Below are positions 5,486-50,240 of a stretch of 64,000 nucleotides of DNA, in pieces; within the stretch, counting starts at the first letter, position 1; each line of letters starts with the position of its first letter. The DNA is taken from contig MHGF01000022.1 in the NCBI GenBank assembly GCA_001805445.1, positions 74,613 to 138,612 on the forward strand, given 5' to 3'. Position numbers and translations under genes: made by a program. The notes beneath the pieces are model-generated. The model was given only the letters and a program-made list of their open reading frames with translations. It had not been told where the DNA came from and ran no database searches. Source of the stretch: Omnitrophica WOR_2 bacterium GWF2_43_52 (GTDB lineage: Bacteria; Omnitrophota; Gorgyraeia; Gygaellales; UBA12090).

Positions 5486-5506
5486 CTATAAATCCTCCCT
5501 GAGAAA

Positions 5507-5533
5507 CCAATTCAACCTACGAGGTTGAATTGG
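5507..5533. repeat. hairpin ccaattcaacct-acg-aggttgaattgg (12-bp stem) with core CAACCTACGAGGTTG; same core as the palindrome at 18766-18816
   Basis: Direct inspection. Lies between the stop of the oxidoreductase gene and the start of the CPDGG gene. Confidence 0.6.
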
Positions 5534-6532: not shown

Positions 6533-6552
6533 AGTTCGCTTCGCTCACTCAC

Positions 6553-6650
6553 GAATTACCACGAATTTTTATCGAATTTACACAAATTAAATCTATATTT
6601 TATTCGTGGCCTTTCGGCTTCTTATTCGTGTGAATTCGTGTTTCTCGGAA
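6553..6650. repeat. MITE-like intergenic element with multiple ACACGAATT/AATTCGTG(T) half-sites in both orientations
   Basis: The sequence cacgaattaccacgaattt...ttattcgtgg...ttattcgtgtgaattcgtgttt belongs to the same family as elements at 17493, 22961, 29925, 36700, 37722, 41383 and 50218. Confidence 0.6.
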
Positions 6651-6897: not shown

Positions 6898-6918
6898 AAT
6901 TTGCTCACTCCGCTCGCA

Positions 6919-6975
6919 AATAGTCGATAGCCTATAGTCGATTGTCCGCAGTAAGATCTATAGCTTATCGATTAT
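6919..6975. repeat. ATAGTCGATAG-type repeat element (aatagtcgatagcctatagtcgattg...ctatagcttatcgatta)
   Basis: Shares the ATAGTCGATAG/CTATAG motif with 25998-26032 and with an in-frame segment of mnmE at 45667-45696. Confidence 0.55.
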
Positions 6976-9427: not shown

Positions 9428-12400
9428 TTATACTTTATCCGATTCCAGGGCAATAAGCAATCCCTTTAGGGAGGGTTCGGTGGCAGGCAATTTTTCATCC
9501 TCTTCCTCGCGCCGAAGGATATCGGCAAGCATAGCGCGAACCTGGTCTATTCTCTCTTCAGAGAGCGGACTGGCCACAGCTGCTGCCGTGTATTCGCCAA
9601 TGCGCTGGACAGACGGCCGGATCCCGGCGTTAAAGACAGCTTGAATTTGAGACCATTCTTTATCCAAATCCGACTTAGGGGTTATAGACAGCGGCCTAGA
9701 GACTAAAGACTGGAGACTTTGAATTTGCTGGGTTTGGATAGGTAGGGCGGCAAAATCGATGCCACCCTTGTCATCGCTGACTGATGAGGAGCTTGTTGAA
9801 TCCAAACTAATCTTATATACACCACCTTCATCAGAATAAATAATCACGGTTGATTCATTAATTACTTCTATCTTTTCTGGAATAATTGACAAACATGGCC
9901 AAACATTCAGGCTATTACTCGCAAAACGAATTGGCTTACCAACATAGGCAGAGGTCATAGGATCCCATAATTCTCCTTTGAGCTTTGTATTCGGCCTTAC
10001 TCCTTTTAATTCTTCTTTCTTCCAAAAAGTATTATTTTCGTCACTTCCACCGACTAATTCTAACGTGACTTTTGCATCCTCTTTAAATTTCTCGAAAACT
10101 TCTTCCTTAGATACGTTTCCTTTCTCTGGTTCCAACAAATAATTATATTGCTTACCAAAAAACAGCACGTTTCCTAAATGCTTAGCCACCTCGGCGAACC
10201 TGCCTAAAGAAGGCTTACAGGCACGTGCAGAATTAAAAAGATATTCTGCCCCTGCCACTGCTACTGCCTCTTTGGGTGTAGTTTTCCAATATTGCGTATA
10301 TCTTTTCAAGGCAACATTTGCATCTTGATATTTAGAATCGTTCTTCAATTCTTCATAACTATCTTCGCCCACGTAACACACCAGCCTTCCGCCATCTTCT
10401 CGATACACCCAATCTCCGTAATTAAAATCGCGAATCTCAGTATAATTCCCTTTTAACTCTCTTTTCAGCTCATCTAATGTCTTCAACTTGCCATTATGAA
10501 ACGCGCCGTAAAACCCAGCTTTGCGGGTAATCTCAATCCACGCATCAAAAGACACTATCGGATTGCTATTCTTATCGCTTGAAAGTGATATTTTATGCAT
10601 AATCTCATGCCAAAATGTTTTGGCCAAGTCTATGAAATTATTCTCATTCCGGACACCATTGATAAATATCGTATGGACTGTTTTTTGGCCAACCCACCCC
10701 CCAGCATTAACATCCAGCTCCGCAAAATCTATTTTTATGGGTATTTTTATCTTTCCCAGCAAATCTTTCGGAAACGATCCTAATATCTTTCTTACGTCTC
10801 CAAAACGTGATGGTGCCACATAAGAGAGAAATTCTATGTTTAATCCTTCCCTTATATCTCGCACTAACAAGAGATAACCCTCAAGGTCTTTTATGGTTTG
10901 CGAGTTATCAATTTTTCTCATACTGCCTAATTCAGACAATATCCTGCTTAACTTCTGAGAATCAATCCGACCGGACGTCTCAAATAGACCCTGTTCATTC
11001 TCTATATATAAATGCACCAGTTCTACCACATATTCATTAAATTCCGACCCTTTACTTTTAAGTATTTTCCCTAACAACTCTTTAGGGGACATCTTCTTTA
11101 TAGCCACTGCTTCCAAAAAATAAGTTTCCTTTATATGTTTAAGGAAAGACACATAATCTCTTAGACCAACCAACGCTACCAGCCTTTTCCTTTCCTTTCT
11201 TATTTCAGCTTCCGGCAATTCTGTATTTATCTGAACAATTACGTTATTTAACACATCCAGATTTATCTCATCGCTTTCCTTATTATCCTTCTGCTTAAGA
11301 TACTTAGCGATGTATTCTTTTATACCGTCATTCAGCCTTCCGGCACCTATATTCTTTTTTATAATCCATTTCACAAAATCTTCAAGAGATAACTCCCTTA
11401 ATTTTTCTGGTGAAGCTGCATATTTATCAAAATCGTGCTTTTCAAAACCTGCATTTCCCACCGCCGAGCTGGCGGAGGAACCATCTATAGGCAAATTAAT
11501 AATTTGTTTCCTTTCTACAGCTGAACTTACAGATAATAATTTACCTATTCCCCTATTATCTCTAACATTAGACAAATTAATCGCGCTTGTTTCATTAGGC
11601 ATAGTAAATGTTTCTTCTGTCATTACGTTAGTTAATGTAGCTGGCTTATAGTTATACTCAGCCATTACAAATTCTTCTCCGTCATGCCAATCTATAAAAA
11701 TCTTAGTCCCTTCATAACCCTCAGGCATATCACCAGTAAAACCAATCCAGAGATCTCTTTTTGTTTTTAGATTCTGGGCATAAAGAACATTCTCACCAGG
11801 GTCATATAGATATTTAAAATTCTCTTTATCCTTATCTTCACACACTTTCAGCTTGAAGGTGGCATGGGTTATAGGGTTAGTAACTTCTATTGTTCCATCG
11901 GCTCGCAATTCACTAAGTAGCCCCTGCCGCATTCTTAGTAAATGCTGCTCTCGCTCCTTCACTGTTTTTTCTTCTCCACCGGTGTCCTCAGAATAAAACG
12001 AGCAACCTCGAAAAATAGTGCGAAAAGGAGTTATATCTATGCCAGCCTCTATAAATTCTTTTTTCAACTCTGCTATAAACTGTGTGAGAAGAAAAGGAGA
12101 ATTTCTATACCTTGAAAAATATTCCTGCCGATGGTCTTTTCGAGCCGCGTCTGTAGAAGGATAGATAATGTCCCACAACAACTTCGTCTGAGGCTTAGTC
12201 GAATGATCGTTATCCTTAATTTCAAGGCTGTCATGAATTATTCTAAACAAAAATCTTTGTAATTCTGAAACCTTCAAGTCACTTGAAAGTAATCGGTCGC
12301 TATTAATGTCTTCTATCACTTTCTTAATATCACTCATTGTAATTGTGTTACCCCATTCCAGCTTTACGTCTGCGGAATCCTCTACCGCCGAGCTGGCGGG

Positions 12401-15400
12401 GGCAGGAGCACCTGTAGATTCATCTTGAAGCGGCACACCCCATAAATTAAGCACCTTTTCTATATCTCGAATATATTCTTCACCAATCTCTTTTTTAGGA
12501 TCGAGTTTAATCCGATCCTTTATTTTCTCTATTTGATCCCTCCAAGCCTTTATACGTGTTTCTAACTCGCCTATTTCAGAAGCAAATTTAAGTTCTTCTT
12601 CTAATATTCTCGGATGGGCATGTTGAAAAAAAAAGTTAAAGTCAGAATCAATAGCCCCTCTTTCTACAAATTTTTGCTCAAGTAATTCATGTAAAAATAC
12701 AGATTTTGTAGGAGAAATGCCTAATTCCTGACAAAACGCATGATAAGCCGCGGGAGAATAATATATGCCCTCCTTCTGGACAGACGGATGAAACATCCAT
12801 ACAATGGATGGTATGGATTCTGGGGCCATATATCTTGTAGCTTTTTCAATTTCATCCCATACTTTGCCTGCGCCACCCGCTAATTCCCTAACTCTTTTGA
12901 TCAATTCCGCAGATGCCCTATCCAACATAAACATCGTAATTCCTATTTTTACCTTAAAAACTCCAATTTCTTCTATAAATTTTTCAAGAGTCATTTTCCT
13001 AATTTTATCCTTGGAACCTATTTTGTTTTCAAGATATTCTGCGGTATCCTTCACCGCAGAATCTATTACATTGGAATCGGGTTTAGCCTTAGGCTGATTA
13101 TGAGCGCTGGCCATCTCCATTTGACTCACTACCTCTGCGATATTACGACTCTTTAAAGCACCCCAGATGTTTTTAGCGTCCAAATTATCTTTACTACCGT
13201 TTGCCAAAGTTACCAGAGACAGCTCCTTAGGCTCTGGATTCCGTCCAAAAAAGCTCATCAAAGAAGAAGAAGCTACTTTTTCTTTTTCACTTATTTCTTC
13301 CACCGCCGAGCTAGGCACATTATTATATGATTTTTCGCTATTGATACTATTTGTTCGATTTAAACCAACCCTTCTTACCATATCGTCTTCGGTAGGTAAC
13401 CTTTTTCCATGAACCCAAAGGGTAAGTCCTGGGTTCTTCTCTGTTATCTCCTTTAGTGCCGACTGATAATCCGGAACAAACATTTTGGCTGTCCAGCCTT
13501 CATAACCATATCCGCCAAAATAATCCAGATTAGTTACTTCTACTTTTTCTGAACTCTTTTTTACAAATATCAATTTTTTAGAATACTCGGCAAAAACTTT
13601 CTCTGCCTGATCCCTGAGAAATTCAGGGACTAAAATATAGTCTATATCTTCAAAACTGACTTCCTGAACACTCCAAGCTAAAGCACCACTTTTACCCGTA
13701 AGCAAGCCTATATCTTTCTTCTTAATAGTGTCAAATTGAGAGACAAAGAGAACAGAATGCATAACCCGCTCCTCCATCATTTCAGATAGAAGGCCATATC
13801 CATGAAGCAAACGTAAATCTTCCCCGTATCTTTCTGTAACAACTGGTAATACCGCATTGCCGTCGCGTCCATTATATAATGCGTCATAGGAAGTATTCAT
13901 AAATCCATTTCTTATTCCTTCTTTAGCCAATTCCTCTACATCTTCCAAAGATAATCCGGGGAGTCTATAGCTCTTATATATTTCCCCTGTTTGCTTAATG
14001 ATTACATTCCATGTCGTGCCATCATCTCCTTTCTCTAATGACAATGTAGGATTGATTATGACCCCATAAACTATAGGTGCTGGCGTTCGCGAGGATAGCG
14101 ACGTATCAACACGCAAACCTCCTCTTTTAATTTGCTCAAGTTGATAAACAATCTCGTCTCCGACCCGTTTCGAAATAAAAAATCCTAATTGCCTGCCTAA
14201 TGCCTTTGGAGATGACAACATACTCAAATCTACAGATAGAAGATAACTCAAAGATTGACCGCTGTGCCCGGTAACAGGATTGAATCTATCCATAATTATT
14301 CTATTTACCCTATATTCCCAATTATTAGCTGGAGATGTAAATTGAGAAACCGCCTTATCAATAAATATTGCCAGATTTTCTTTTCCTGCCCACTGAGCAT
14401 AATCTTTAAAAAGCTCTTCTAAATAGCTTAATCCTGCCACATCATTATTTTCTGTCCGCATAAATCTAACAACATCCTCTCCAGAGGTGCCAATACCAGC
14501 TGCCTTTCCTATGATTGTTGCTACACCATATTTGTTCAACGCTTCTGCAAATATTTTATAAGACTGCTCAATAATTGAAGATGAAGCTCTATCAGTTGCA
14601 AAGGACTCTATTAAAAATTTAGTTCTCGGAGGACTAATTGTCTTAGCAGGAATCTTAGAGATTGCGCTGCTAACTTGTTCCGTTCCAAACATCATCCCCC
14701 CGCTCATATACTTGCGGATACTCTGGCCCATAGGAGTATATATCGGCTCAGTGAGGTTGTATTCGCCATCTTGGAATGATTTCTGGTATTGCTGGAAGTA
14801 ATCTTGCTTGTCATACAGTTCTTTAGAAACCAAATTAGTCAAAGCCCCGGAATCTATGAGCTTGAAGTAATCATTGGCTTTTTCTGTCCTCTGTTCCCTG
14901 TTCTCTGTCATCTGCGAGCGAAAGCGAGCTTTAAACCACTGCGCCAAGATGAGCGAATAATACACCTGCCGAAGAGAAGCGTATCTCTTTGAGGTATTCA
15001 CCTGATAGGTAAGCTTAGGGATTACCAATTCTCTGATAAGCTGGGTAGAATATTCATTGAGCTCCTTTAGCCTTGGATCTTTGAAACTATAATTTATTAT
15101 CGTCCCTCGTCCTTCATCCTTCATCCCTCGTAAATAATCCTCCTCCAGCATCACTTTTAGGGTTGCTTTGTATATGTACGCATTATCAGGGGCTTCTCTG
15201 ATGATTATCTCATTGGGCACTATCCAGGGGCGGGTTAAGGTGGGTATGGTAATATTCTCCGTTCCAAATAATTCTTCTGCTTTCTTATAGAGTTTATCCC
15301 AGTAAACTTTTCCTTCAGGGTCTTGGGGTGAAGTAAAGTTTGCGGTGTCCTTCTTTAGCTGGACATCTGCTTCTAAGAATATCCTGCCGATATCAGTCAT

Positions 15401-15868
15401 TGCTACGTCATCATCTATGATGTTATCCGGTGAATCCGGCCTTAGGTTTACCCAGAATTTATCATTAGGCAGGCTTAAGCCGATAAAGAAGTATTTCAAT
15501 AGCTCTTTGGTAGCATTATTGAGCTCATTAGCTGGTGAGCTGGTTAGCTCATTAGCTAAATGGTTATCAAATTTAGTATCTCCTTTGTCTAACAATAGCT
15601 GAAAGTCATTGCTTTGGCTATCGTAGGAGATGTACCTTAGATGTAAGGGACGGAATTTGTCTTGGGGGATAACCGCATTACGGGCTTGGTTAAAGTAACC
15701 AGAAATATCCAGAGTCTGGGCTACTTGGGCAAAGCTGGTTTGCTCAAAGATAAGGCAGAAACAAAAGAAAAAATGGGCTATGCGCCCGCCACACTGCCTT
15801 GGCGGGCGTCCGCCTATGCTTTGTGGTGGACGTTGTGCGTTATGAGTCATGTCGAATACGATAGGCAA
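9428..15868 (-). CDS. giant multidomain protein A (2146 aa) of unknown function, sharing N- and C-terminal modules with the 26062-29616 paralog
   Basis: Single uninterrupted ORF. The first ~430 aa are ~85% identical to paralog B. The C-terminal ~100 aa (GGIDFAALPI...TEPSLKGLLIALESD) resemble the B C-terminus. An internal HExxH motif (FWHEIMHKISL) is present. The SSAVE linker motif recurs four times. The N-terminus has a long charged region before a hydrophobic stretch, IAHFFFCFCLIF. Confidence 0.8.
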   Translation of the reverse strand: MPIVFDMTHNAQRPPQSIGGRPPRQCGGRIAHFFFCFCLIFEQTSFAQVAQTLDISGYFNQARNAVIPQDKFRPLHLRYISYDSQSNDFQLLLDKGDTKFDNHLANELTSSPANELNNATKELLKYFFIGLSLPNDKFWVNLRPDSPDNIIDDDVAMTDIGRIFLEADVQLKKDTANFTSPQDPEGKVYWDKLYKKAEELFGTENITIPTLTRPWIVPNEIIIREAPDNAYIYKATLKVMLEEDYLRGMKDEGRGTIINYSFKDPRLKELNEYSTQLIRELVIPKLTYQVNTSKRYASLRQVYYSLILAQWFKARFRSQMTENREQRTEKANDYFKLIDSGALTNLVSKELYDKQDYFQQYQKSFQDGEYNLTEPIYTPMGQSIRKYMSGGMMFGTEQVSSAISKIPAKTISPPRTKFLIESFATDRASSSIIEQSYKIFAEALNKYGVATIIGKAAGIGTSGEDVVRFMRTENNDVAGLSYLEELFKDYAQWAGKENLAIFIDKAVSQFTSPANNWEYRVNRIIMDRFNPVTGHSGQSLSYLLSVDLSMLSSPKALGRQLGFFISKRVGDEIVYQLEQIKRGGLRVDTSLSSRTPAPIVYGVIINPTLSLEKGDDGTTWNVIIKQTGEIYKSYRLPGLSLEDVEELAKEGIRNGFMNTSYDALYNGRDGNAVLPVVTERYGEDLRLLHGYGLLSEMMEERVMHSVLFVSQFDTIKKKDIGLLTGKSGALAWSVQEVSFEDIDYILVPEFLRDQAEKVFAEYSKKLIFVKKSSEKVEVTNLDYFGGYGYEGWTAKMFVPDYQSALKEITEKNPGLTLWVHGKRLPTEDDMVRRVGLNRTNSINSEKSYNNVPSSAVEEISEKEKVASSSLMSFFGRNPEPKELSLVTLANGSKDNLDAKNIWGALKSRNIAEVVSQMEMASAHNQPKAKPDSNVIDSAVKDTAEYLENKIGSKDKIRKMTLEKFIEEIGVFKVKIGITMFMLDRASAELIKRVRELAGGAGKVWDEIEKATRYMAPESIPSIVWMFHPSVQKEGIYYSPAAYHAFCQELGISPTKSVFLHELLEQKFVERGAIDSDFNFFFQHAHPRILEEELKFASEIGELETRIKAWRDQIEKIKDRIKLDPKKEIGEEYIRDIEKVLNLWGVPLQDESTGAPAPASSAVEDSADVKLEWGNTITMSDIKKVIEDINSDRLLSSDLKVSELQRFLFRIIHDSLEIKDNDHSTKPQTKLLWDIIYPSTDAARKDHRQEYFSRYRNSPFLLTQFIAELKKEFIEAGIDITPFRTIFRGCSFYSEDTGGEEKTVKEREQHLLRMRQGLLSELRADGTIEVTNPITHATFKLKVCEDKDKENFKYLYDPGENVLYAQNLKTKRDLWIGFTGDMPEGYEGTKIFIDWHDGEEFVMAEYNYKPATLTNVMTEETFTMPNETSAINLSNVRDNRGIGKLLSVSSAVERKQIINLPIDGSSASSAVGNAGFEKHDFDKYAASPEKLRELSLEDFVKWIIKKNIGAGRLNDGIKEYIAKYLKQKDNKESDEINLDVLNNVIVQINTELPEAEIRKERKRLVALVGLRDYVSFLKHIKETYFLEAVAIKKMSPKELLGKILKSKGSEFNEYVVELVHLYIENEQGLFETSGRIDSQKLSRILSELGSMRKIDNSQTIKDLEGYLLLVRDIREGLNIEFLSYVAPSRFGDVRKILGSFPKDLLGKIKIPIKIDFAELDVNAGGWVGQKTVHTIFINGVRNENNFIDLAKTFWHEIMHKISLSSDKNSNPIVSFDAWIEITRKAGFYGAFHNGKLKTLDELKRELKGNYTEIRDFNYGDWVYREDGGRLVCYVGEDSYEELKNDSKYQDANVALKRYTQYWKTTPKEAVAVAGAEYLFNSARACKPSLGRFAEVAKHLGNVLFFGKQYNYLLEPEKGNVSKEEVFEKFKEDAKVTLELVGGSDENNTFWKKEELKGVRPNTKLKGELWDPMTSAYVGKPIRFASNSLNVWPCLSIIPEKIEVINESTVIIYSDEGGVYKISLDSTSSSSVSDDKGGIDFAALPIQTQQIQSLQSLVSRPLSITPKSDLDKEWSQIQAVFNAGIRPSVQRIGEYTAAAVASPLSEERIDQVRAMLADILRREEEDEKLPATEPSLKGLLIALESDKV

Positions 15869-15877
15869 TGCCAGGCA

Positions 15878-15940
15878 TAAACAAGTATCATTTTTACTTG
15901 ACTATGCCTGGCATTGTGCGGGGCTATTAGCTACCTAAAA
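15878..15940. repeat. AATGCCAGGCATA ... TATGCCTGGCATT hairpin element (14-bp stem, ~24-nt loop) in the giant gene A leader
   Basis: Inverted repeat seen directly. Near-identical copies at 29625-29680 and, with a short loop, at 20698-20735. Confidence 0.65.
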
Positions 15941-16082
15941 TATACTATATTTTAAGCCCAAAACAAGGCTAAAACAGGGGGTTTGGGAAAGCGCTTTCTG
16001 CAACCGCAGATTACGCGGATTTTGAAAAAAACAAGTCCGCGGATTGCGCAGATTGAAAGGGACGGTTGTTCCTATATATAGT

Positions 16083-17492: not shown

Positions 17493-17572
17493 AAAACTAA
17501 TTTCCACACAAATTAACACGAATAGATTTGTGGGAATTCGATAAAAATTCGTGGGAATTCGTGTTATCAAAT
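17493..17572. repeat. MITE-like ACACGAATT-family element between nuoC and nuoD
   Basis: The sequence aacacgaatagatttgtgggaattcgataaaaattcgtgggaattcgtgtt has half-sites in both orientations. Confidence 0.6.
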
Positions 17573-17605: not shown

Positions 17606-18760
17606 ATGGACCTTCAAATACACACTGAAAATTTAGGCACACAAAATAAACCTCAAGCCGCTTTTGAAACAGAAGACTTTGAAGTCAGCTTTGGCCCGCA
17701 GCATCCCTCAACCCACGGGGTTTTACGCCTGCAATTAACCCTTGACGGTGAAGTCGTGATTGGCTGTGTACCCCATATAGGCTACCTCCACAGGGACTTT
17801 GAAAAAATCTGCGAAAACAGGACCTATACCCAAATTATTCCCTACACCGACCGCCTTGATTATCTGGGGGCAATGAACAATAACTTTGGTTATTGCATGG
17901 CGATAGAAAAATTAATGGGCCTCGCGATTCCTGAGCGCGCGGACTATATCCGGGTGATTATCGCGGAATTAAACCGCATTGCCAGCCATCTTTTGGCTGT
18001 CGGGACATTCGTTCAGGATTTAGGCGCGTTTGGCACTCCCCTGCTTTATTGCTTTCGCGAAAGAGAAAAAATCCTGGATATCTTTGAAAGCACCTGCGGC
18101 AGCCGACTTACCTATAATTATTACCGCATAGGAGGGGTATCCGCGGACATCCCCGCTGATTTTCAAAAAAAGGTAAAAGAATTTATAGATTATTTTAAGC
18201 CAAAACTCAAAGAGTATGAAGACCTAATGCCTCTTAATGCTATACTTCTGGTGCGCACCAAGGGTATCGGAATACTCAGCAAGGAAAAAGCGCTTGCCTA
18301 TGCTGTAACCGGCCCTAACTTGCGGGCAAGCGGAGTCAAATTTGACTTACGAAAGGAAGAGCCTTATTCTATCTATCCCCGTTTTGAATTTGACATTCCC
18401 GTAATAACTACCGGGGACACCTGGGATAGGCTCAGAATAAGAATGGATGAACTCTACCAGTCTCTGAGGATTATTGAACAGGCTATAGATAACATCCCGC
18501 AGGGAGAACATATTGCCAAGGTGCCAAAAATCTTAAAACCTCCGGCAGGTGAAATTTACTTCAGGTCAGAAAGCCCGCGCGGTGAGTTAGGATTTTATGT
18601 AATCAGTGACGGCTCAACTAAGCCTTACCGGCTAAAATGCCGGGCGCCGTCTTTCTGTAATCTGGCGGTGATTTCGGATTTAGTCAAAGGAGTAAAAGTA
18701 GCTGATGTCATTGCCATTCTGGGAAGCCTGGATGTAGTATTAGGCGAGATTGATCGATAA
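17606..18760 (+). CDS. nuoD: NADH-quinone oxidoreductase subunit D (49 kDa)
   Basis: Likely true start MDLQIHTEN at 17606. The track start at 17528 lies inside the repeat element. Motifs GPQHPSTHGVLRL and RAPSF.NL. Confidence 0.85.
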   Translation: MDLQIHTENLGTQNKPQAAFETEDFEVSFGPQHPSTHGVLRLQLTLDGEVVIGCVPHIGYLHRDFEKICENRTYTQIIPYTDRLDYLGAMNNNFGYCMAIEKLMGLAIPERADYIRVIIAELNRIASHLLAVGTFVQDLGAFGTPLLYCFREREKILDIFESTCGSRLTYNYYRIGGVSADIPADFQKKVKEFIDYFKPKLKEYEDLMPLNAILLVRTKGIGILSKEKALAYAVTGPNLRASGVKFDLRKEEPYSIYPRFEFDIPVITTGDTWDRLRIRMDELYQSLRIIEQAIDNIPQGEHIAKVPKILKPPAGEIYFRSESPRGELGFYVISDGSTKPYRLKCRAPSFCNLAVISDLVKGVKVADVIAILGSLDVVLGEIDR

Positions 18761-18765
18761 CCGTA

Positions 18766-18816
18766 ACAACCTACGAGGTTGAAATTTTCAACCTCGTAGG
18801 TTGTTATATGGACGTA
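18766..18816. repeat. perfect 20-bp-arm palindrome aacaacctacgaggttgaaa/tttcaacctcgtaggttgtt between nuoD and nuoH
   Basis: Read directly. Shares the CAACCTACGAGGTTG core with the hairpin at 5507-5533. Confidence 0.65.
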
Positions 18817-18825
18817 TAACATAAA

Positions 18826-19797
18826 ATGATGGATTTACCGTTTATTCTAAATTTTCTTCTGATGTGCGCTAAGGCCGCGGGGCTGCTTGGTTTTGTCAGC
18901 ATATCGGTCATGTTTCTTATCTGGTGGGAACGTAAAATAAGCGCGCACATCCAATCCCGCTTAGGGCCAATGATTGTCGGCTGGCATGGCGCTCTTCAAA
19001 CTATCGCTGATACCCTAAAGCTGCTTCTTAAAGAAAACATCGTCTGTAGAGAAGCGGATAAACTCACTTTCTGGCTCGCGCCGCTGGTTGTCTTTGTGGC
19101 AAGCTTTCTTCCTTTTGTGGCTATCCCTTTTAGCAAAAATCTGATTGCGCAAGACTTACCTTTAGGGTTGCTCTATATTTTAGCGGTAAGCAGTGTCGGT
19201 GTCATCGGCATTTTTATGGCCGGATGGGGCTCCGGCAATAAATATTCTCTGCTTGGAGGGATGCGCACCGCGGCCCAAATCATCAGCTATGAAATCCCGC
19301 TTGTGCTTTCCATCCTTCCTATTGTGATGATGACCGGCTCTCTGAGCATGAATACAATTATCGGAGCCCAGAAAAATGTATGGTTTATCTGTTACCAACC
19401 CATCGCGTTTTTGATATATTTTATATCGGCGATTGCCGAGGTGAACCGCGCGCCTTTTGATATTGCCGAGGCCGAGTCGGAATTAGTCGCCGGATTTCAT
19501 ACGGAATATAGCGGAATGAAGTTTTCCATGTTCTTCTTGGCCGAATATACCAATATGTTTGTAGTGTCGGTTATCGCCACCACCCTCTTTTTAGGAGGAT
19601 GGCAAGGGCCATTATTACCGGGAATCGCCTGGTTTTTATTAAAAGTTTACTTCCTGATTTTTGTGATGATGTGGATACGCTGGACATTCCCGCGGCTGCG
19701 CGTAGACCAGCTGATGGATTTCGCTTGGAAATTCCTTATGCCTTTGGCATTTTTGAATATATTGGTTACCGCGCTGGTAATGGCGCTCATAAAATAA
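18826..19797 (+). CDS. nuoH: NADH-quinone oxidoreductase subunit H
   Basis: 323 aa polytopic membrane protein. Motifs WERK and PFDI.E.ESEL..GF..EYSG. Confidence 0.9.
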   Translation: MMDLPFILNFLLMCAKAAGLLGFVSISVMFLIWWERKISAHIQSRLGPMIVGWHGALQTIADTLKLLLKENIVCREADKLTFWLAPLVVFVASFLPFVAIPFSKNLIAQDLPLGLLYILAVSSVGVIGIFMAGWGSGNKYSLLGGMRTAAQIISYEIPLVLSILPIVMMTGSLSMNTIIGAQKNVWFICYQPIAFLIYFISAIAEVNRAPFDIAEAESELVAGFHTEYSGMKFSMFFLAEYTNMFVVSVIATTLFLGGWQGPLLPGIAWFLLKVYFLIFVMMWIRWTFPRLRVDQLMDFAWKFLMPLAFLNILVTALVMALIK

Positions 19798-19799
19798 CG

Positions 19800-20207
19800 A
19801 TGAAAGAATTTTTTGAGTATACGGCAAGTTTAATCAAAGGCTTAGGCGTAACGCTTAAATATCTCTGCAGGCCCGCGGTTACTTTGCAATACCCCAAACA
19901 AAGATGGACCCCGCCTGAACGCTACAGGGGGAGGGTCGCGCTTCGCCCTAAAAAATGCATCTCCTGCCAGATGTGCGCGCGGGCGTGCCCTAACAATTGT
20001 TTAGAAGTTAAATTTAACGTAGGCGACGATAAAAAAAGGAAACTTACCGAATTTGTGTATCATATAGACACCTGTTTATTCTGCGGGCTTTGCGCTGAAC
20101 CCTGCCCGACGTCCGCGATATTTATGAACCATGATTACGAGCTCGCGGTTTGTGACCGTAAGGATTTGATTGTAGACTTGGTAAAGGTTGATAGTTATGT
20201 GGAGTAA
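19800..20207 (+). CDS. nuoI: NADH-quinone oxidoreductase subunit I (2 x [4Fe-4S] ferredoxin)
   Basis: In-frame ATG at 19800 (MKEFFEY...). Two CxxCxxCxxxCP motifs: CISCQMCARACP and CLFCGLCAEPCP. Confidence 0.85.
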   Translation: MKEFFEYTASLIKGLGVTLKYLCRPAVTLQYPKQRWTPPERYRGRVALRPKKCISCQMCARACPNNCLEVKFNVGDDKKRKLTEFVYHIDTCLFCGLCAEPCPTSAIFMNHDYELAVCDRKDLIVDLVKVDSYVE

Positions 20208-20697: not shown

Positions 20698-20735
20698 TGC
20701 CAGGCATACTACTTGTGTATGCCTGGCATTAAGAA
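20698..20735. repeat. short-loop copy of the AATGCCAGGCATA hairpin between nuoJ and nuoK
   Basis: The sequence taatgccaggcata-ctacttgtg-tatgcctggcatta is read directly. Confidence 0.65.
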
Positions 20736-22960: not shown

Positions 22961-23075
22961 TTACACACGAATTAACACGAATCAAAGGCCGAATTAGCAC
23001 GAATAAAAACCGTAGTTTTTCCCACACACAGGGAAATTCGTGTGTAATTTGTTTAAATTCGTGTTTACAGGAGGG
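22961..23075. repeat. MITE-like ACACGAATT-family element with perfect 13-bp terminal inverted repeats (ttacacacgaatt ... aattcgtgtgtaa) between nuoL and nuoM
   Basis: TIRs at 22961-22973 and 23035-23047. Additional cacgaat half-sites lie inside and after the element. Confidence 0.65.
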
Positions 23076-25998: not shown

Positions 25999-26032
25999 AT
26001 AGTCGATAGTCAATAGTCTATAGCCGATAGCA
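25998..26032. repeat. ATAGTCGATAG-type repeat element (aaatagtcgatagtcaatagtctatagccgatagc) after nuoN
   Basis: Read directly. Closely related to the 30-bp segment inside mnmE at 45667-45696. Confidence 0.6.
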
Positions 26033-26061: not shown

Positions 26062-29000
26062 TCAGTTATGAGGGTTCACTACTATTCGGCTTAAGGCAAG
26101 CTGTACTTCTTGGGCAGGATTATCTGACTCAAGCGCGATAAGGATTTGTTTTAAGGCGGGCTCGGTGGGAATAAACTTTTGCTCCTGCGCGCGTAAAATT
26201 TCGGCGATATGGGTAATGACAACTTCTATCTGCTCACTGCTTACCGCTGACGATTGGCTTGCCGTATAGGCCATATCGCGTATGCGCGCGGTTGCGGGGA
26301 TAAAATCATTCTTGAGCATCACTTCAATCTGCCGGCACTCCTCGTCAAAATTAATATTCAGGCTTATGGGCGCAGAACCAAACATAGAAAGTTGATTCCC
26401 TAGAGCTGGCTGCGCGGTTATAGGCAATGCGCGTAAGTCTATACCTCCCACATCATGAACTTTTTCATTAAGGGGCGAGGAATTCGCTATTGCGGCGATA
26501 CCGCCATGATCTGCTAAATATGTTAAAAGCCCTTTATAATTTGTAAACTTATTTTCTTTAACAATTCTCGCAATATTTTCTATGGGCAAAGCTTCTAAAA
26601 TGCTAAAGAGTGTTTGCCTCGTGCCGCCAATTTCCTTTAACAAAGGAATAATCGTATCCGGATTCTTCGCGCGGGCAAACATATCCAGGAAATTCTCAGG
26701 GATATTATGAATATTTTGTTTTGGTTTTTTTAAATAATTAGACACTATTTCTCTGATTGTTTTGCTCTCCACTTCACTCATTTCATCTACAATTCTCTTT
26801 ATCTCTTCCCTTGATTTATCATCAACGGTCATGTCAGGGAATTCCAACATCAAGCGTACACACCTAAATATAGTATCTAACTTTAATAAACGATTTGTTC
26901 CATGGCGCGACACGGCAGGAATAAGGCTAAGGCGTTTTTGTATAATATCTTCGGCATAATCTCCTCCCGCGCTACTTGTAACTACCCAACCGCTCGTATC
27001 CTTATGAACGATAAGCCTGTTAAGGGAAAAATCACGCAAAATATCTACTTTGGCATATAGTTCATCTTCGTAAAGGAATAATTCTTCAGAATCAGGGTCC
27101 TTACCAAGGTTAAGGACATGCAAAGGGGTATCTTTAAATTTTATCCTTGTCATATCCTCTATAAAATAAATAATCTCACTTACCGATCGCACTTTGCTCT
27201 TATCATAACCCCTAATAACAATATCAATATCTGCCGCTCTCAAAGACGGCTTTATCCCTGTAACCATTTTCCGCGCTATCCCTCCCGCAAACCCAAAGTA
27301 TACTCCTTTTTTTTCTAACTCGTTTGTAATATATAAGATATCCTCGTCCACGGCTATATTAATTCCTCGGTTTTCTTTTCTTTCTGAATCTTCCAGCCGT
27401 GCAAGTTGAAATGATTTTCCATCTACCTCCACCACCGAGCTGGCAGCTGATATTGAAACACATCCTCCTACATAACTTTGCTCTGGCCGTGTATGAAAGC
27501 CATATTTTTTTAATTGAGCTATATCGCCATCTGGCAAATGCCCTATGAATTCCTTTGACTGATAACCTCCTAAAATAATCTTGTCAATTCTAATGTTACG
27601 ATCTTTAATCATGTTTAATATAAGGCCAACGCTGGTCAAGTTAGTTACCGGCCCATAATCACCAGGCCAAGTTCCGATGTTGCTTATTAAGACAATGCTA
27701 TCTTTTATCTCAGGGATTTTTGGCATAAGTGTATCTTTATTCGTCAAATCTCCGGCAATACACCAAAAATGCACACCTTCCCTAAACTTGTTAGCCTCAA
27801 AATGTTGCCTTGCTTTGTTCAAAGAGGCTTCATCATTATCTATAAGTATGGCCTGGGAAGCCCCCAGCTTAAGCGCCGTCAAAGCAAGCAGTCCGTCTCC
27901 GGATCCGGAATCAATAACACACTTTCCTGCGATATTGCTATTCAGCATTAAAAGTATAGTCGCAGAAGTGAAAAGCTTCATCCTGCCGCCTTTTTCCTCC
28001 GATTCACCAATCGTGGAGTCAGATAAATCCGATACAACAATAGCTCTTTCTTTCAAGGCAGCGCGTAACTCCAAATCTTTCTCTAAATCCTCATACACTT
28101 CCTTGTCTATAAAAAACAAACCTCCGATCTTAACCAAATCATATCCTTGATGATTATCTTTGACTCTTACCAATAAAGTTGCCTGCTCTATTCCATTGTA
28201 AGTTACACTATCATCAATTTCCCTTTGAGCATGAATGTAATACTTTCTCTCCCCGCCAACCCCTTTAATTGCTTTCAATTCTTTCTCTATGCGCTGCCAA
28301 AGCTGTTTTTCTAAATTCGTAAGATACTTTATCGGGTAAGCATATGCGTCATTCATTATTTCTGGCATATCTTTTTTTGCTGGTATCATTGTAGTCACAG
28401 CCGAACTACTCATAAATCCTTCTATTCCTCCGCTCAGATACCTACGAATATTTTGGCCATAAGGGGTATAGACTGGTTCTGTAATATTATATTCGCCATC
28501 TTGGAATGATTTCTGGTATTGTTTAAAGTATTCTTCTTTATCATAAGGCTCTTTTGAAGTGAGGTTAGTCAAGTCTCTTGAATCAATAAGCTTACTATAG
28601 GGGTTATCCGGTTTACCGGTAAGCGAGTTAACCGGTTTACTGGCTAACCCGTTCACCGGCACACTAAATTTATTCTTAAACCACTGCGCCAATATAAGCG
28701 AGTAATACACTTGCCTAAGAGAAGCATATCTCTTTGAGGTATTCACCTGATAGGTGAGCTTAGGGATTATCAATTCTCTGATAAGCTGGGTTGAGTATTC
28801 ATTGAGCTCCTTTAGCCTGGGGTCTTTGAAATTGTATTGCTGCTGGCTGACAGCTGAAAGCTGAAAGCTTTTCAGATAGTCTTCTTCAAGCATCACTTTT
28901 AGCGTTGCCTTGTAGATATAAGCATTATCTGGGGATTCCCTGATGATGATTTCATTGGGCACGATCCAAGGACGGGTTAAGGTAGGTATAGTAATATTCT

Positions 29001-29616
29001 CTGAACCAAATAATTCCCCCGCCTTCTTATAGAGCTTATCCCAATATTGTTTGCCTTCTGGGGTCTGGGGTGAAGTAAAGTTCGCGGTATCCTTCTTTAG
29101 CTGGACATCCGCCTCTAAGAATATCCTGCCAATATCAGTCATTGCCAAGTCATCATCTATGATGTTATTTGGCGAATCCGGCCTTAGGTTGACCCAGAAT
29201 TTATCATTAGGCAGGCTTAAGCCTATGAAGAAATACCTGAGTAAATTTTGAGTCTCACCTTCAAGGGCTTTTTCTTGTTTCTCTGGTGACGTGGTGACCT
29301 GGTGACGGGGTGACTCTTTTAAGAAATCCCCTTTATCTACAAGAAGCTTAAAATCATTGCTTTGGCTATCGTAGGAGATGTATCTTAAGTGCAGTGGACG
29401 AAATTTATCTTGGGGAATAACCGCGTTACGGGCTTGGTTAAAGTAACTGGAGATATCCAGCGTCCGGGCTACTTGGGCAAAGACTGGCTGTTCAAAGATA
29501 AGGCAAAAACAAAGGAAAAAATGGGCTATGCGCCCGCCACACTGCTTTGGCGGGCGTCTGCCTATGCTTTGTGGCGGACGTTGTGCGTTATGAGTCATAT
29601 TGAATATGATAGGCAA
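26062..29616 (-). CDS. giant multidomain protein B (1184 aa): conserved N-module, class I SAM-methyltransferase-like motif, Pol-beta-type nucleotidyltransferase-like motif and conserved C-module
   Basis: The N-terminal ~430 aa are ~85% identical to giant A. The central segment VIDSGSGDGLLALTALKLGASQAILIDND is a GxGxG SAM-binding-like motif. GFAGGIARKMV...AADIDIVI fits the hG[GS]x9-13Dh[DE]h nucleotidyltransferase signature. The C-terminus GGIDLRALPI...TEPALKQILIALESD matches A. Confidence 0.75.
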   Translation of the reverse strand: MPIIFNMTHNAQRPPQSIGRRPPKQCGGRIAHFFLCFCLIFEQPVFAQVARTLDISSYFNQARNAVIPQDKFRPLHLRYISYDSQSNDFKLLVDKGDFLKESPRHQVTTSPEKQEKALEGETQNLLRYFFIGLSLPNDKFWVNLRPDSPNNIIDDDLAMTDIGRIFLEADVQLKKDTANFTSPQTPEGKQYWDKLYKKAGELFGSENITIPTLTRPWIVPNEIIIRESPDNAYIYKATLKVMLEEDYLKSFQLSAVSQQQYNFKDPRLKELNEYSTQLIRELIIPKLTYQVNTSKRYASLRQVYYSLILAQWFKNKFSVPVNGLASKPVNSLTGKPDNPYSKLIDSRDLTNLTSKEPYDKEEYFKQYQKSFQDGEYNITEPVYTPYGQNIRRYLSGGIEGFMSSSAVTTMIPAKKDMPEIMNDAYAYPIKYLTNLEKQLWQRIEKELKAIKGVGGERKYYIHAQREIDDSVTYNGIEQATLLVRVKDNHQGYDLVKIGGLFFIDKEVYEDLEKDLELRAALKERAIVVSDLSDSTIGESEEKGGRMKLFTSATILLMLNSNIAGKCVIDSGSGDGLLALTALKLGASQAILIDNDEASLNKARQHFEANKFREGVHFWCIAGDLTNKDTLMPKIPEIKDSIVLISNIGTWPGDYGPVTNLTSVGLILNMIKDRNIRIDKIILGGYQSKEFIGHLPDGDIAQLKKYGFHTRPEQSYVGGCVSISAASSVVEVDGKSFQLARLEDSERKENRGINIAVDEDILYITNELEKKGVYFGFAGGIARKMVTGIKPSLRAADIDIVIRGYDKSKVRSVSEIIYFIEDMTRIKFKDTPLHVLNLGKDPDSEELFLYEDELYAKVDILRDFSLNRLIVHKDTSGWVVTSSAGGDYAEDIIQKRLSLIPAVSRHGTNRLLKLDTIFRCVRLMLEFPDMTVDDKSREEIKRIVDEMSEVESKTIREIVSNYLKKPKQNIHNIPENFLDMFARAKNPDTIIPLLKEIGGTRQTLFSILEALPIENIARIVKENKFTNYKGLLTYLADHGGIAAIANSSPLNEKVHDVGGIDLRALPITAQPALGNQLSMFGSAPISLNINFDEECRQIEVMLKNDFIPATARIRDMAYTASQSSAVSSEQIEVVITHIAEILRAQEQKFIPTEPALKQILIALESDNPAQEVQLALSRIVVNPHN

Positions 29617-29760
29617 TGCCAGGCATAGTCAAGTGAAAATGACACTTGTTTATGCCTGGCATTGTGCGGGGCTATTAGCTACCTAAAATATACTACATTT
29701 TAAGTCCAAAACAAGGCTAAAACAGGGGGTTCGGGAAAGCGCTTTCTAATGAGGCCACAA
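29617..29760. promoter_or_regulatory. duplicated leader and promoter region of giant gene B, near-identical to 15869-16010 upstream of giant gene A; contains the AATGCCAGGCATA hairpin
   Basis: Nucleotide-level near-identity between the two regions, seen by direct comparison. The hairpin copy at 29625-29680 lies inside it. Confidence 0.6.
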
Positions 29761-29924: not shown

Positions 29925-30005
29925 GGGAAATACACGCGAATGGACGCGAATAAAGGGGAAGAATATTTGCGCGAATTTACGCGAATTGACCAAGAAAACA
30001 GATGC
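29925..30005. repeat. CGCGAAT/ACGCGAAT variant of the MITE-like half-site array
   Basis: The sequence cacgcgaatggacgcgaataaagg...gcgcgaatttacgcgaattgacc. The 29881-30123 '+' ORF overlapping it is probably not coding. Confidence 0.45.
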
Positions 30006-33351: not shown

Positions 33352-33441
33352 ATTATCCTCGTTTCGCTCGGGAGTTTACAGTTAACAGTGAACAGCACAT
33401 GAAAAAACTATCTTCTTTTAACAAATGTTTCAGCTGTTATT

Positions 33442-36699: not shown

Positions 36700-36790
36700 T
36701 AAACGCGAATTTACGCTGATTTTTTCTTGCCTGCCGTATAGGCAAGCGCGAATATCCGCGAATTTTTATTCGCGTCTATTCGAGTTTTAG
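36700..36790. repeat. CGCGAAT-variant half-site array (aaacgcgaatttacgc...gcgcgaatatccgcgaatttttattcgcg)
   Basis: Read directly. Same family as the other MITE-like elements. Confidence 0.5.
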
Positions 36791-37719
36791 GCGAAGACGC
36801 CGATTTTTCTGAATTTCTGATAACGTTGGGCGAGTAGTATATCAACAGGAATTTGTTTTAACTCATCAAGGTGTTTCTTGATTGTCTTTTTAAGGCTTTG
36901 GGCGGTTTTCTGCGCGTCGCGATGCGCGCCTCCCTGAGGCTCATTCACAATATCATCAATAATCCCTAACTCTAAGAGTTCCTGAGCGGTTAATTTTAAG
37001 GCGCTTGCCGCCTCGTTGGCCTTGGCAGAATCTTTCCAGAGAATAGCCGCGCAGCCTTCGGGAGAAATTACTGAATAATAAGCATTTTCCATCACGCATA
37101 CCCTGTCTCCTATGCCAATACCAAGCGCGCCTCCTGAGCCGCCTTCCCCAATAACTACCACGACTATCGGCACTCCTATCAGGACCATCTCGCGCAGGTT
37201 TAAGGCAATAGCCTGGGCCTGGCCCCTTTCTTCCGCGCCTATCCCCGGGTATGCCCCGGGAGTATCAATCAAGGTAACTATAGGAACATTGAATTTTTGG
37301 GCAAGCTGCATAAGGCGAAGCGCTTTACGGTAGCCTTCGGGATGGGCGCAGCCGAAATTACGCTTAAGGTTTTCTTTGGTATCCCTGCCTTTTTGATGGC
37401 CCAGCACCAAAATCTTCTGGCCATCGAGTTTAGCCAGCCCGGAAACCATTGCTTTATCGTCGCTAAAAAGCCTGTCACCGTGCAATTCGCAAAAATCAGT
37501 TAGCATTAAGTCGATATAATCAAGGGTATACGGGCGCCGGGGATGGCGGGCAATCTTGACGCGCTGCCAAGCTGTAAGGTTTTGGTAAATCTCATTCTTC
37601 TTTTTTTCCAATTCCTGCTCAAGGCGCTTGATTACCTCTTTATCTTTGGTAATGTGCCGTAATTCCTCAATCTTGCGCTCTAATTCCAGTATTGGCCGCT
37701 CGAAATCTAATCCAATCAT
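36787..37719 (-). CDS. accA: acetyl-CoA carboxylase carboxyltransferase subunit alpha
   Basis: 310 aa, colinear with E. coli AccA. Motifs LDFE.PI.ELE.KI, ARHP.RPYTLDY, GRDTKE...RNFG and GEGGSGGALGIG. Confidence 0.9.
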   Translation of the reverse strand: MIGLDFERPILELERKIEELRHITKDKEVIKRLEQELEKKKNEIYQNLTAWQRVKIARHPRRPYTLDYIDLMLTDFCELHGDRLFSDDKAMVSGLAKLDGQKILVLGHQKGRDTKENLKRNFGCAHPEGYRKALRLMQLAQKFNVPIVTLIDTPGAYPGIGAEERGQAQAIALNLREMVLIGVPIVVVVIGEGGSGGALGIGIGDRVCVMENAYYSVISPEGCAAILWKDSAKANEAASALKLTAQELLELGIIDDIVNEPQGGAHRDAQKTAQSLKKTIKKHLDELKQIPVDILLAQRYQKFRKIGVFA

Positions 37720-37721
37720 TT

Positions 37722-37790
37722 TAAAACACGAATAGACACAAATTATACACGAATACGCGCGAATATCCGCATAAAATATAATTTGCTGCT
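37722..37790. repeat. MITE-like ACACGAAT-family element (aaaacacgaatagacacaaattatacacgaatacgcgcgaatatccgc)
   Basis: Read directly. Confidence 0.5.
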
Positions 37791-39694: not shown

Positions 39695-39815
39695 CTTTAG
39701 ATCCCCTAACTTTTAAAATATAGATTTTCTTGCTTTCTGACAGCGCTTATGTTATTGTAAAAATACTATTATATTCGCGTTTTGCTATTTGTGCAAGGTT
39801 TTTTTGGAGAGGCAG

Positions 39816-41382: not shown

Positions 41383-41450
41383 GGTTAAACACGAATTCCC
41401 ACTAATTTTTATCGAATTAACACGAATCAATTCACGGAAATTCATGTTTT
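41383..41450. repeat. MITE-like ACACGAATT-family element (aaacacgaattcccac...cgaattaacacgaatcaattcacggaaattcatgttt)
   Basis: Read directly. Confidence 0.5.
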
Positions 41451-41505: not shown

Positions 41506-41820
41506 ATGATACTCACCAATATCGAATCCGTTCCAGGTAAGAAAATCATCGAACATTACGGCTTAGTCTGCGGGAGCACCATACGGGCAAAAAACGCGTT
41601 TAAAGATTTAGGCGCGGGCTTCAAAAACATCTTTGGCGGGGAGTTAAAAAGTTATACCGCGTTAATGGAAGAATCGCGCGGCCAGGCCATAGAACGCATG
41701 ATGCAGCAGGCGCAGGCGCTTGGGGCCAACGCGATTATCAATGTGCGTTTTTCCACCTCAAACATCGCGCAGGGAGCGGCTGAATTATACGTCTACGGCA
41801 CCGCGATCAAAACAGAATAG
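41506..41820 (+). CDS. YbjQ/UPF0145 family protein
   Basis: 104 aa. Characteristic GANAI.NVRF and AELYVYGTAI motifs. Confidence 0.75.
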   Translation: MILTNIESVPGKKIIEHYGLVCGSTIRAKNAFKDLGAGFKNIFGGELKSYTALMEESRGQAIERMMQQAQALGANAIINVRFSTSNIAQGAAELYVYGTAIKTE

Positions 41821-45933: not shown

Positions 45934-46033
45934 AGTTTTAAACATATTCTCTTTGTTAATAGCGGTTACCAACGGTTAAAAGCAGTTAATAACAGTTACT
46001 GTTGTAACCGATTGTAACCAATAGTAACTGCTC

Positions 46034-50217: not shown

Positions 50218-50240
50218 AATAAAAAACGAATTCGTGTATT
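50218..50240. repeat. single palindromic ACGAATTCGTGT half-site pair upstream of the lipoprotein gene
   Basis: aacgaattcgtgtattc is read directly. Confidence 0.35.

Follow-up and report, generated by a model that had tools for sequence, protein, structure and literature searches.

The window analysed here, a stretch of 64,000 nucleotides (nt) on contig MHGF01000022.1 of Omnitrophica WOR_2 bacterium GWF2_43_52, contains a family of short intergenic arrays in which an 8-bp word recurs about once per 10.4 bp. These arrays are probably gene-less orphans, similar to miniature inverted-repeat transposable elements (MITEs), of a compact element whose complete form carries a GxxExxY (PDDEXK_3) nuclease gene as its probable mobiliser. 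As judged from sequence comparisons, the arrays and the GxxExxY gene form one evolutionary unit. Furthermore, the array family is not lineage-specific but occurs in at least six bacterial phyla, and the window elements are inserted DNA.

Word arrays in the window

Clusters with at least three units of the degenerate word C[AG]C[AGT][AG]AT, which also takes in the CGCGAAT and CGCRGAT variants, occur eight times in the window versus 0.24 times per shuffled sequence (shuffle maximum two). Their units read CACGAATT, CGCGAATT or CGCRGATT, lie about 10.4 bp apart in intergenic DNA and usually form a forward block with a reverse block behind it. The word ACACGAATT was found seven times versus 0.49 expected, a number that none of 100 shuffles reached. 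The motif family reported in the earlier note is thus real and far above chance. The bare 7-mer ACGAATT, with 15 occurrences versus 10.9 expected, is without enrichment, and the signal must therefore lie in the longer word and in its clustering. Practically all CACGAAT occurrences (18 of 19) fall within seven intergenic clusters, which are confined to the DNA between long open reading frames (ORFs), at most 10.3% of the window (binomial P = 3e-17).

The copies are non-coding, multi-copy, situated between ORFs throughout and, with 45 to 105 bp, of MITE size; their density in this Omnitrophota genome is roughly one per 8 kb of the window, and a further copy was found beyond the window in the same genome (L216, ~19728-19828). 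Three distinct words (CACGAAT, CGCGAAT and CGCRGAT types) are present in the window of this one genome. The copies at 6548-6641, 17500-17566 and 41387-41447 have 38 to 60 nt in common at 82 to 92% identity, indicating that entire arrays were dispersed, beyond single words. In particular, 38 nt of the first copy are 92% complementary to 17526-17563 and 44 nt are 86% identical to 41390-41433, while 60 nt of the third are 82% complementary to 17506-17565. The copy between nuoL and nuoM was identical across six independent assemblies of the same species and is therefore no assembly artefact.

Occurrence across phyla

The pattern CACGAATTNNCACNAATTNNNNNCGAATT, with 21 specified bases, for which ~0.3 matches by chance were estimated over the two strands of 596 Gb, matched at least 119 loci. 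By record title, the matches listed comprise 65 Bacteroidota (mainly rumen Prevotella and Bacteroidales), 20 Omnitrophota, 15 KSB1, six Planctomycetota, five Ignavibacteria, four Chthonomonadaceae (Armatimonadota) and one Verrucomicrobiia, together with two Firmicutes-labelled contigs and one unclassified record. Several metagenome-assembled genomes (MAGs) contain three to seven matches each, and the layout among the matches is uniform: three to four forward units, a variable loop and three to four reverse units. The earlier note had left room for a motif at chance frequency or confined to the window; it is neither.

In KSB1 the array forms the core of a repeat of ~190 bp with conserved flanks (L014, L016, L047, L077, L092, L105, L110; MAG METF01), the left flank carrying a CCGGATAAACCGG hairpin and the right flank ending in ...TTGCCATATTTGTAC...TAAGATACT with a promoter-like look, which suggests a composite element. 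On a short contig labelled Lachnospiraceae (L055) the array and its flanks (gcaccttcggtgctg) are near-identical to rumen Prevotellaceae copies, and this contig is likely mis-binned. A Prevotella-type array was also seen on a 46-kb contig labelled Oscillibacter (L112).

Association with the GxxExxY gene

An all-against-all BLAST of the ORFs adjacent to the arrays unveiled a single recurrent neighbour, a PDDEXK_3 gene at five of the at least 119 loci; no other common neighbour gene was found among the nearby ORFs by this comparison. At these five loci (four Prevotella/Bacteroidaceae, one Ignavibacteria) an ORF of 124 to 159 amino acids (aa) is enclosed exactly by the forward block on one side and the reverse block on the other. 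The bracketed ORFs belong to PF13366 PDDEXK_3 (E ~1e-35; 120-125 bits versus a cut-off of 22) and to the NCBIfam family TIGR04256, 'GxxExxY protein' (128-155 bits versus a cut-off of 35).

For an array-blind sample, loci were chosen by protein similarity: of 600 candidate metagenome stretches 538 encode relatives, the best 80 were kept, and 63 loci with a 180-bp flank on either side of the gene served as the test set. At least three phased units were present on both flanks of 45 of the 63 loci versus 1 of 189 shuffled controls, and on at least one flank of 57 versus 13 of 189. In 50 of the 63 loci the similarity of the upstream flank to the reverse complement of the downstream flank exceeded the 99th percentile of shuffles. 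Arrays were detected in 81% of the adjacent 180-bp flanks versus 11% of the stretches at least 500 bp further out on the same contigs.

The words around these genes vary (CACGAAT, CACAAAT, CACTAAT, CGCGAAT, CGCTAAT, CGCAGAT, CACAGAT, CGTTAAT and CATTAAT), with the same word on either side of a given gene, and all three words of the window are also found around GxxExxY genes. The word follows the protein tree, the mean protein distance being 0.413 between genes with the same word and 0.478 between genes with different words (none of 2000 permutations was as extreme, p < 0.0005). Named gene-carrying examples were also obtained from Kryptoniota and Cloacimonadota. Two layouts occur: the gene lies either in the loop between the blocks or between complete forward-plus-reverse elements. 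In a Kryptoniota locus (L218, 40-400 and 940-1170) at least six forward modules of ~60 bp with three words each stand upstream, and at least four reverse modules downstream, of the gene.

The transition from the gene-carrying to the orphan form was observed at a chromosomal locus shared by a Prevotellaceae MAG (L024) and a metagenome contig (L143), whose flanks are 97% identical. Here, L024 lacks 349 bp inside the ORF, so that the 26 N-terminal and the last few codons are left between intact arrays; gene loss by deletion yields the orphan form. Orphan and gene-carrying copies with the same word order are found together in the MAGs JAFZVY01 and CAMUYR01. Among the at least 119 pattern-selected loci listed, five carry the gene, one a remnant and 113 neither, and orphans therefore far outnumber complete copies. 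On viral contigs no GxxExxY relative was confirmed among the matches listed, which are chance pattern matches and uninformative.

As a side observation, GxxExxY elements with four different words (L139, L144/L145, L154, L185) are situated directly upstream of a GDP-fucose-synthase-like gene, three of these loci having a GDP-mannose-dehydratase-like gene upstream, and L218 lies between two epimerase/dehydratase genes; these sugar-nucleotide gene identities were read from the sequence, with Pfam used for L218 only. The pattern corresponds either to repeated insertion or to an old insertion that diverged in place.

The GxxExxY protein

The structural model of the GxxExxY protein, derived with 30 homologues, reached a predicted local distance difference test score (pLDDT) of 91.8, and its best structure matches in the PDB were Cas4 SSO0001 (E 1e-4), lambda exonuclease, RecE and the nuclease domains of AddAB/AdnAB. 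Invariant in the 30 sequences are E32 (the GxxExxY glutamate), D72, E82 and K84 (D...ExK) as well as Q96, with Y100 near-invariant. On this model, the protein of ~125 aa is predicted to be a minimal Cas4/RecB-like PD-(D/E)XK nuclease with conserved catalytic residues. A sequence search of the PDB returned no relative with a solved structure, and PADLOC and PHROGs gave weak Cas4-like hits and no real match.

The family is large, with 7159 matches in a word-indexed search and 28,609 clusters at 50% identity at E <= 0.001 (10,006 at E <= 1e-10). A 2012 survey of the PD-(D/E)XK superfamily lists the function of PDDEXK_3 as 'Unknown' and notes multiple horizontal transfers. In the literature, with most subscription journals outside the search, no description was found that links GxxExxY, PF13366, TIGR04256 or IPR026350 with flanking repeats. 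Some members (P0241, P0281, P0303 and others) consist of 250 to 295 aa with two GxxExxY domains in tandem. One GxxExxY protein (P0058) is named 'NADH:ubiquinone oxidoreductase' in its public record, a name probably carried over from a neighbouring gene.

Insertion into the nuo operon

The closest named relatives of the window NuoM belong to Candidatus Omnitrophota, and the source assemblies are groundwater MAGs. Four relatives with NuoM 86, 84, 77 and 75% identical were compared, the 86% relative by its gene table only. The gap between nuoC and nuoD measures 1 to 3 bp in the relatives (1-2 bp in the 84, 77 and 75% relatives, 3 bp in the 86% relative) versus at least 123 bp in the window. Between nuoL and nuoM it amounts to 40, 23, 62 and 14 bp, in the order of NuoM identity given above, versus 120 bp in the window, and no unit was present in this gap of the three relatives with sequence (23, 62 and 14 bp). 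The comparison of related genomes that the earlier note had suggested thus found both junctions empty in all four relatives, in one of them by gene table. Furthermore, no such array was found in 45.8 kb from three relatives (L206-L208), including the region upstream of nuoA and the nuo junctions. Consequently, the window elements are insertions and not conserved regulatory sites. The whole stretch from 17483 to ~17660 is without a counterpart in the relatives.

At nuoD, the window has GCT TTT where the relatives L206-L208 have their start codon (M-L/E-ETEAFEV...), and ATG 17606 is the only in-frame start. The earlier note had placed the annotated nuoD start inside an element. This start, TTG 17528, is an artefact of the ORF finder, but the suspected effect on the gene start itself stands, the ancestral start being gone and NuoD having to begin at ATG 17606. 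Insertions into housekeeping operons have parted nuoC from nuoD and nuoL from nuoM and forced the new nuoD start.

Nature of the arrays

Neighbouring words were found 10 bp (238 cases), 11 bp (156), 9 bp (30), 12 bp (11) and 21 bp (39) apart, with a mean of ~10.3-10.5 bp; about 10.4 bp correspond to one turn of B-DNA. The complementarity of the 2-3-nt spacers between the arms amounts to 37% versus 34±6% for random spacer pairs, and the apparent palindrome is therefore a symmetry of the words only. Arm mismatches compatible with G·U pairing are equally distributed, with 60 on the sense and 59 on the antisense strand. Helical spacing, word-only symmetry and the lack of a G·U strand bias point to arrays of putative sequence-specific protein-binding sites on one face of double-stranded DNA, not to a selected RNA or DNA hairpin.

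Among known signals, intrinsic terminators were rejected, since on either strand T prevails in the left flank and A in the right one, and the stems are AT-rich and interrupted. DnaA-box clusters, OmpR/PhoB-type boxes, integrase arm sites and Mu/Tn7 ends were dropped on sequence inspection.

Interpretation and alternative explanations

The phased word-only symmetry, the covariation of word and protein clade, the packing of the gene between arrays and the catalytic residues lead us to infer that the nuclease binds the words and mobilises both forms, the window orphans being, or having been, mobilised in trans. The complete element would measure ~0.5-0.7 kb and consist of three to four copies of the 8-bp word ~10.4 bp apart, the gene of ~125 aa and the same words inverted. 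The words would be binding sites for the element's own nuclease, with one protomer per word on one helix face, and would diverge between element lineages together with the protein. The nuclease may cut at or near the arrays, whereby the element would be moved or copied to intergenic sites rich in AT. Loss of the gene by internal deletion would bring the two blocks back to back, and the orphans could persist and multiply in a MITE-like manner on protein supplied in trans. A wider proposal, to which we give somewhat less credence than doubt, is that GxxExxY/PDDEXK_3 proteins are the end-binding and end-cutting enzymes of an unrecognised class of mobile elements. This class would comprise elements of ~0.5 kb without a DDE, HUH or serine/tyrosine recombinase, with co-evolving phased-word ends and with gene-less MITE- or REPIN-like derivatives across the Fibrobacteres-Chlorobi-Bacteroidetes (FCB) group, the Planctomycetes-Verrucomicrobia-Chlamydiae (PVC) group and other phyla.

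Several observations weigh against mobilisation of the arrays by the GxxExxY nuclease. Neither tblastn nor hidden Markov model (HMM) searches found a GxxExxY gene or remnant in the window, the adjoining 19 kb of the contig (84 kb in all) or ~20 Omnitrophota loci of up to 8 kb, and the link in this phylum is therefore one of array homology alone. The protein P0086 was found on 20 contigs and always in one genomic context, so that no recent multi-locus movement of a gene-carrying copy is seen. The covariation of word and clade would also arise from plain co-inheritance, and the sample chosen by protein similarity holds relatives at least ~45% identical to the queries and some near-duplicate loci. 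The layout with the gene between complete elements is sometimes tandemly amplified (L164, L209, L218); the architecture is thus not uniform, and a passenger or homing gene would fit it as well. Finally, no target-site duplication was detected in 43 elements, where direct repeats of 2 to 6 bp at offsets 0-2 were not above random pairing. TTACA on either side of the nuoL-nuoM copy is a single case and overlaps a unit, and the tendency of the element flanks to TTTAAA-like sequence on both sides is indistinguishable from extended symmetry.

The chief rival explanation treats the arrays as an independent dispersed repeat, spread by another enzyme of the host or of an element. The GxxExxY gene would then be a passenger of the homing-endonuclease type that cuts gene-less arrays and is copied in by repair from an occupied copy. 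PD-(D/E)XK homing endonucleases exist, and I-Bth0305I is among the weak fold matches of the model; the prevalence of gene-less loci (113 of the 119 pattern-selected loci listed), the mostly exact position of the gene between the blocks and the lack of a GxxExxY gene near the window copies are in its favour, and the word-clade covariation would equally be expected. However, the gene-less loops vary widely in length and sequence, with no conserved intact homing site visible, and many loci have the gene outside a loop, with complete elements on its two sides. The sole transition observed is a deletion inside the ORF and not a precise gain or loss, and the spread of the arrays themselves is left unexplained. 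We therefore regard this explanation as unlikely, though the strongest of the alternatives.

Each of the three further explanations conflicts with one or more tests. Elements acting at the RNA level, comparable to REP (repetitive extragenic palindrome) and ERIC sequences, would form hairpins within polycistronic transcripts and serve in the stabilisation, attenuation or processing of these mRNAs. All window copies are situated between co-directional genes and would hence be transcribed, and several of them fold better than shuffled sequences (z -4 to -5.7). The nuo copies, however, give weak values (z -2.1 to -2.4), several copies have forward units only, the spacers show no pairing beyond chance, and the G·U counts given above are balanced between the strands. 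Moreover, the flanks are arranged as the reverse of a terminator, and the copies are absent from orthologous sites of the relatives. Rfam 15 gave no match at the gathering score in the whole window and only chance-level matches at E up to 10 for the focal element between nuoL and nuoM. An RNA-level function thus appears improbable; some copies would still fold if transcribed, and RNA effects may arise as a by-product.

Still less probable are operator arrays of a global transcription factor or nucleoid-associated protein of the host, with phased direct repeats of the OmpR/PhoB type. The helical-repeat spacing, the conservation of only the words and one array upstream of the nuo promoter region are in line with such a regulator. 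On the other hand, the corresponding promoters and junctions of the relatives (L206-L208) lack the sites, copies are also found within operons and behind genes, a single genome uses three different words, word and element-borne gene co-vary across phyla, and a regulon would be far less dense than one site per 8 kb. Of the binding-site arrays for a global regulator considered in the earlier note, the protein-binding arrays are retained, given the helical spacing and the word-only symmetry. The global regulator is not, as the sites are not conserved at orthologous positions and the word varies by lineage, following the clade of the element gene.

Replication slippage, by which short tandem repeats would arise independently in AT-rich spacers, is hardly credible: other short-period intergenic arrays (heptamers) exist in this genome and modules are tandemly amplified in some loci, but at least six phyla have this 8-bp word in common, with an identical period and forward/reverse arrangement, copies have 40-60 nt in common at 82-92%, and the units are not contiguous perfect repeats.

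If the proposed mobilisation by the GxxExxY nuclease is true, one of the largest families of small proteins without an assigned role would gain a function and a concrete biochemical test. The complete element of ~0.5 kb would be among the smallest autonomous DNA elements known, and a third system of a gene plus orphan repeats would stand beside insertion sequence (IS)/MITE and RAYT/REPIN, on a different enzyme fold. Should the nuclease be the mobilising enzyme, the elements would form a new class. The proposal would also explain intergenic repeats of rumen Prevotella, groundwater Omnitrophota, KSB1, Planctomycetota and others, which confound gene-start calling (as for nuoD) and assembly. Core respiratory operons can be remodelled by insertions of this kind, the tight nuoC-nuoD junction being lost and NuoD having a new N-terminus. 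The word-protein covariation may provide a natural series of matched pairs of DNA word and protein as a possible tool.

Individual copies and neighbouring repeats

As outlined in Table 1, inverted word blocks are present in five of the eight window clusters, among them one perfect 13-bp pair. The earlier note had described all of its elements as (A/C)ACGAATT copies in both orientations. Those at 29925-30005 and 36700-36790 are built from CGCGAAT and not from ACGAAT; 29935-29986 and 37727-37764 have forward units only, as does the array at 16005-16053, which was missing from that list. The 13-bp inverted repeat of the focal element is exact (TTACACACGAATT, 22961-22973, and AATTCGTGTGTAA, 23035-23047) but not terminal as previously claimed, a further reverse unit following at 23056-23063; the spacer between the forward and the reverse block is 29 nt long. 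The region 50218-50240, formerly counted as an array, contains a single palindromic pair. The CGCAGAT/CGCGGAT words of the array upstream of nuoA also flank GxxExxY genes in L147, L148, L152, L155, L205 and others.

Table 1 Arrays of the window and the displaced nuoD gene; positions are those of the window, and units are given by their first position or by their span.
Feature	Coordinates	Strand	Cluster span	Forward units	Reverse units	Location and remarks
panE-side copy	6548..6641	.	6550-6640	6550, 6560, 6571, 6581	6601, 6623, 6633	upstream of panE-like gene 5534-6532(-)
CGCAGAT/CGCGGAT array	16005..16053	+	16005-16053			upstream of nuoA; holds typical outer unit GTCCGCGGATT
nuoC-nuoD copy	17500..17566	.	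17507-17563	17507, 17517	17526, 17536, 17546, 17556	
nuoD	17606..18760	+				displaced start; ATG 17606 adds ~18 N-terminal residues (MDLQIHTENLGTQNKPQAAF...)
Focal element	22961..23066	.	22966-23063	CACGAATT 22966, CACGAATC 22976, GCCGAATT 22988, CACGAATA 22998	23035-23042; 23045-23052 (AATTTGTT, degenerate); 23056-23063	fills gap from nuoL stop to nuoM ribosome-binding site
CGCGAAT array	29931..29988	+	29935-29986	four, as two pairs spaced 10 bp		two more CGCGGAT/CGCAGAT-like units downstream to ~30052
CGCGAAT copy	36700..36782	.	36704-36774	36704, 36714, 36747, 36757	36768, ~36778	between padR-like gene and accA; RNA fold z = -5.7
accA-side copy	37724..37766	+	37727-37764	CACGAAT, CACAAAT, CACGAAT, CGCGAAT	block not clear	between accA (36787-37719, -) and L,D-transpeptidase gene
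ybjQ-side copy	41387..41447	.	41390-41427	four	degenerate	between Mg-chelatase-like gene (39789-41381) and ybjQ-like gene (41506-41820)
Palindromic pair	50224..50238	.				one pair AACGAATTCGTGT; doubtful member, minimal remnant or chance

Other repeat families were noticed beside the arrays. Palindromes of the type TGCCAGGCATA...TATGCCTGGCA occur at 15869-15913, 20698-20728 and 29617-29661 (six exact half-sites; seven matches at one mismatch versus 1.3 expected at that setting). One of them occupies the nuoJ-nuoK gap, which measures 47 bp in the window and 0-1 bp in the relatives, where this copy is absent. A third family, AACCTACGAGGTTG palindromes at 5505-5533 and 18765-18805 (three half-sites versus 0.02 expected), has a copy in the 65-bp nuoD-nuoH gap; it is absent from three relatives with gaps of 2-3 bp, and the fourth relative (P0125) has 79 bp by gene table. 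Both palindromes are unrelated to the word arrays.

Intergenic arrays with a heptamer period were found at 6916-6942, 26002-26028, 45668-45694, 3505-3570, 33385-33410, 45990-46033 and 53190-53300, with words such as ATAGTCG/ATAGTCA..., ACGGTxx, AACAGTx, GTAACxx and GGGATTAG-like ones, often paired in inverted orientation; in analogy to the word arrays, they may be orphans of elements with other small genes. In the same genome, ~1 kb outside the window on the side of position 1 (L216, 13274-13942), a 222-aa Y1_Tnp-like gene (PF01797, weak match) has CGCACCCCCGCGGTGCGTA hairpins on both sides. This arrangement resembles a RAYT/REP pair and has no relation to the CACGAATT arrays. Paralogous genes of very large size at 9428-15868 (2146 aa) and 26062-29616 (1184 aa) contain segments 74-91% identical; one of the two genes has a PrmA-like match in a gene table, and their upstream regions (15866-15951 and 29614-29699) are duplicated including the TGCCAGGCATA palindrome.

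Comparison with known systems

Homing endonuclease genes, free-standing or intron-borne and including PD-(D/E)XK types, are likewise small selfish nuclease genes in a specific sequence context, multi-copy and patchy across taxa. In contrast to them, the elements described here are tied neither to an intron or intein nor to one conserved target gene, and the flanking word arrays are abundant without the gene. The Rpn/YhgA-like 'transposase_31' and PDDEXK_2 proteins, annotated as putative transposases, are also PD-(D/E)XK proteins with a suspected role in DNA rearrangement and many paralogues per genome, but they are assigned to other Pfam families and are much larger, and neither phased arrays at their flanks nor orphan derivatives have been described for them.

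The phased word arrays recall the ends of Mu, Tn7, Tn5053, the eukaryotic En/Spm-CACTA elements and the P element, which consist of several short binding words, direct at one end and inverted at the other; these elements likewise have non-autonomous deletion derivatives. They are kilobases long and use DDE transposases; TnsA of Tn7, a PD-(D/E)XK protein, only assists its DDE partner.

With bacterial MITEs (Correia/NEMIS, ERIC, and IS630- or IS200/605-derived families) the elements described here share the small size, the non-coding and multi-copy character, the insertion polymorphism, inverted blocks in five of the eight window clusters and, at one locus, the derivation from a coding copy by internal deletion. 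The miniature transposable elements considered in the earlier note are thus largely borne out: these short, dispersed sequences without coding capacity are built from inverted blocks, are absent from the nuo junctions of the relatives, and have a gene-carrying counterpart with the same ends. Unlike in MITEs, no target-site duplication was found, and the ends are word arrays and not one continuous terminal inverted repeat. The coding partner contains no DDE, HUH or serine/tyrosine recombinase, its PDDEXK_3 nuclease being a putative mobiliser only and no known transposase; furthermore, classical MITE families are lineage-specific.

The similarity to REP/REPIN-RAYT systems lies in a gene between inverted short repeats, in gene-less intergenic copies at about one per 8 kb and within operons, and in orphans presumed to be mobilised in trans. 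REP/REPIN sequences are imperfect palindromes of 20-40 nt with a conserved GTAG, whereas here non-palindromic 8-bp words are phased at 10-11 bp spacing and conserved across phyla. The RAYT gene encodes a Y1/HUH enzyme (PF01797), whereas the gene described here encodes a PF13366/TIGR04256 PD-(D/E)XK nuclease and is itself multi-copy. Because there is no GTAG-type palindrome, no Y1/HUH or DDE enzyme and no target-site duplication, the system is a member of neither group, yet it works most like the REPIN/RAYT or MITE/IS pairs.

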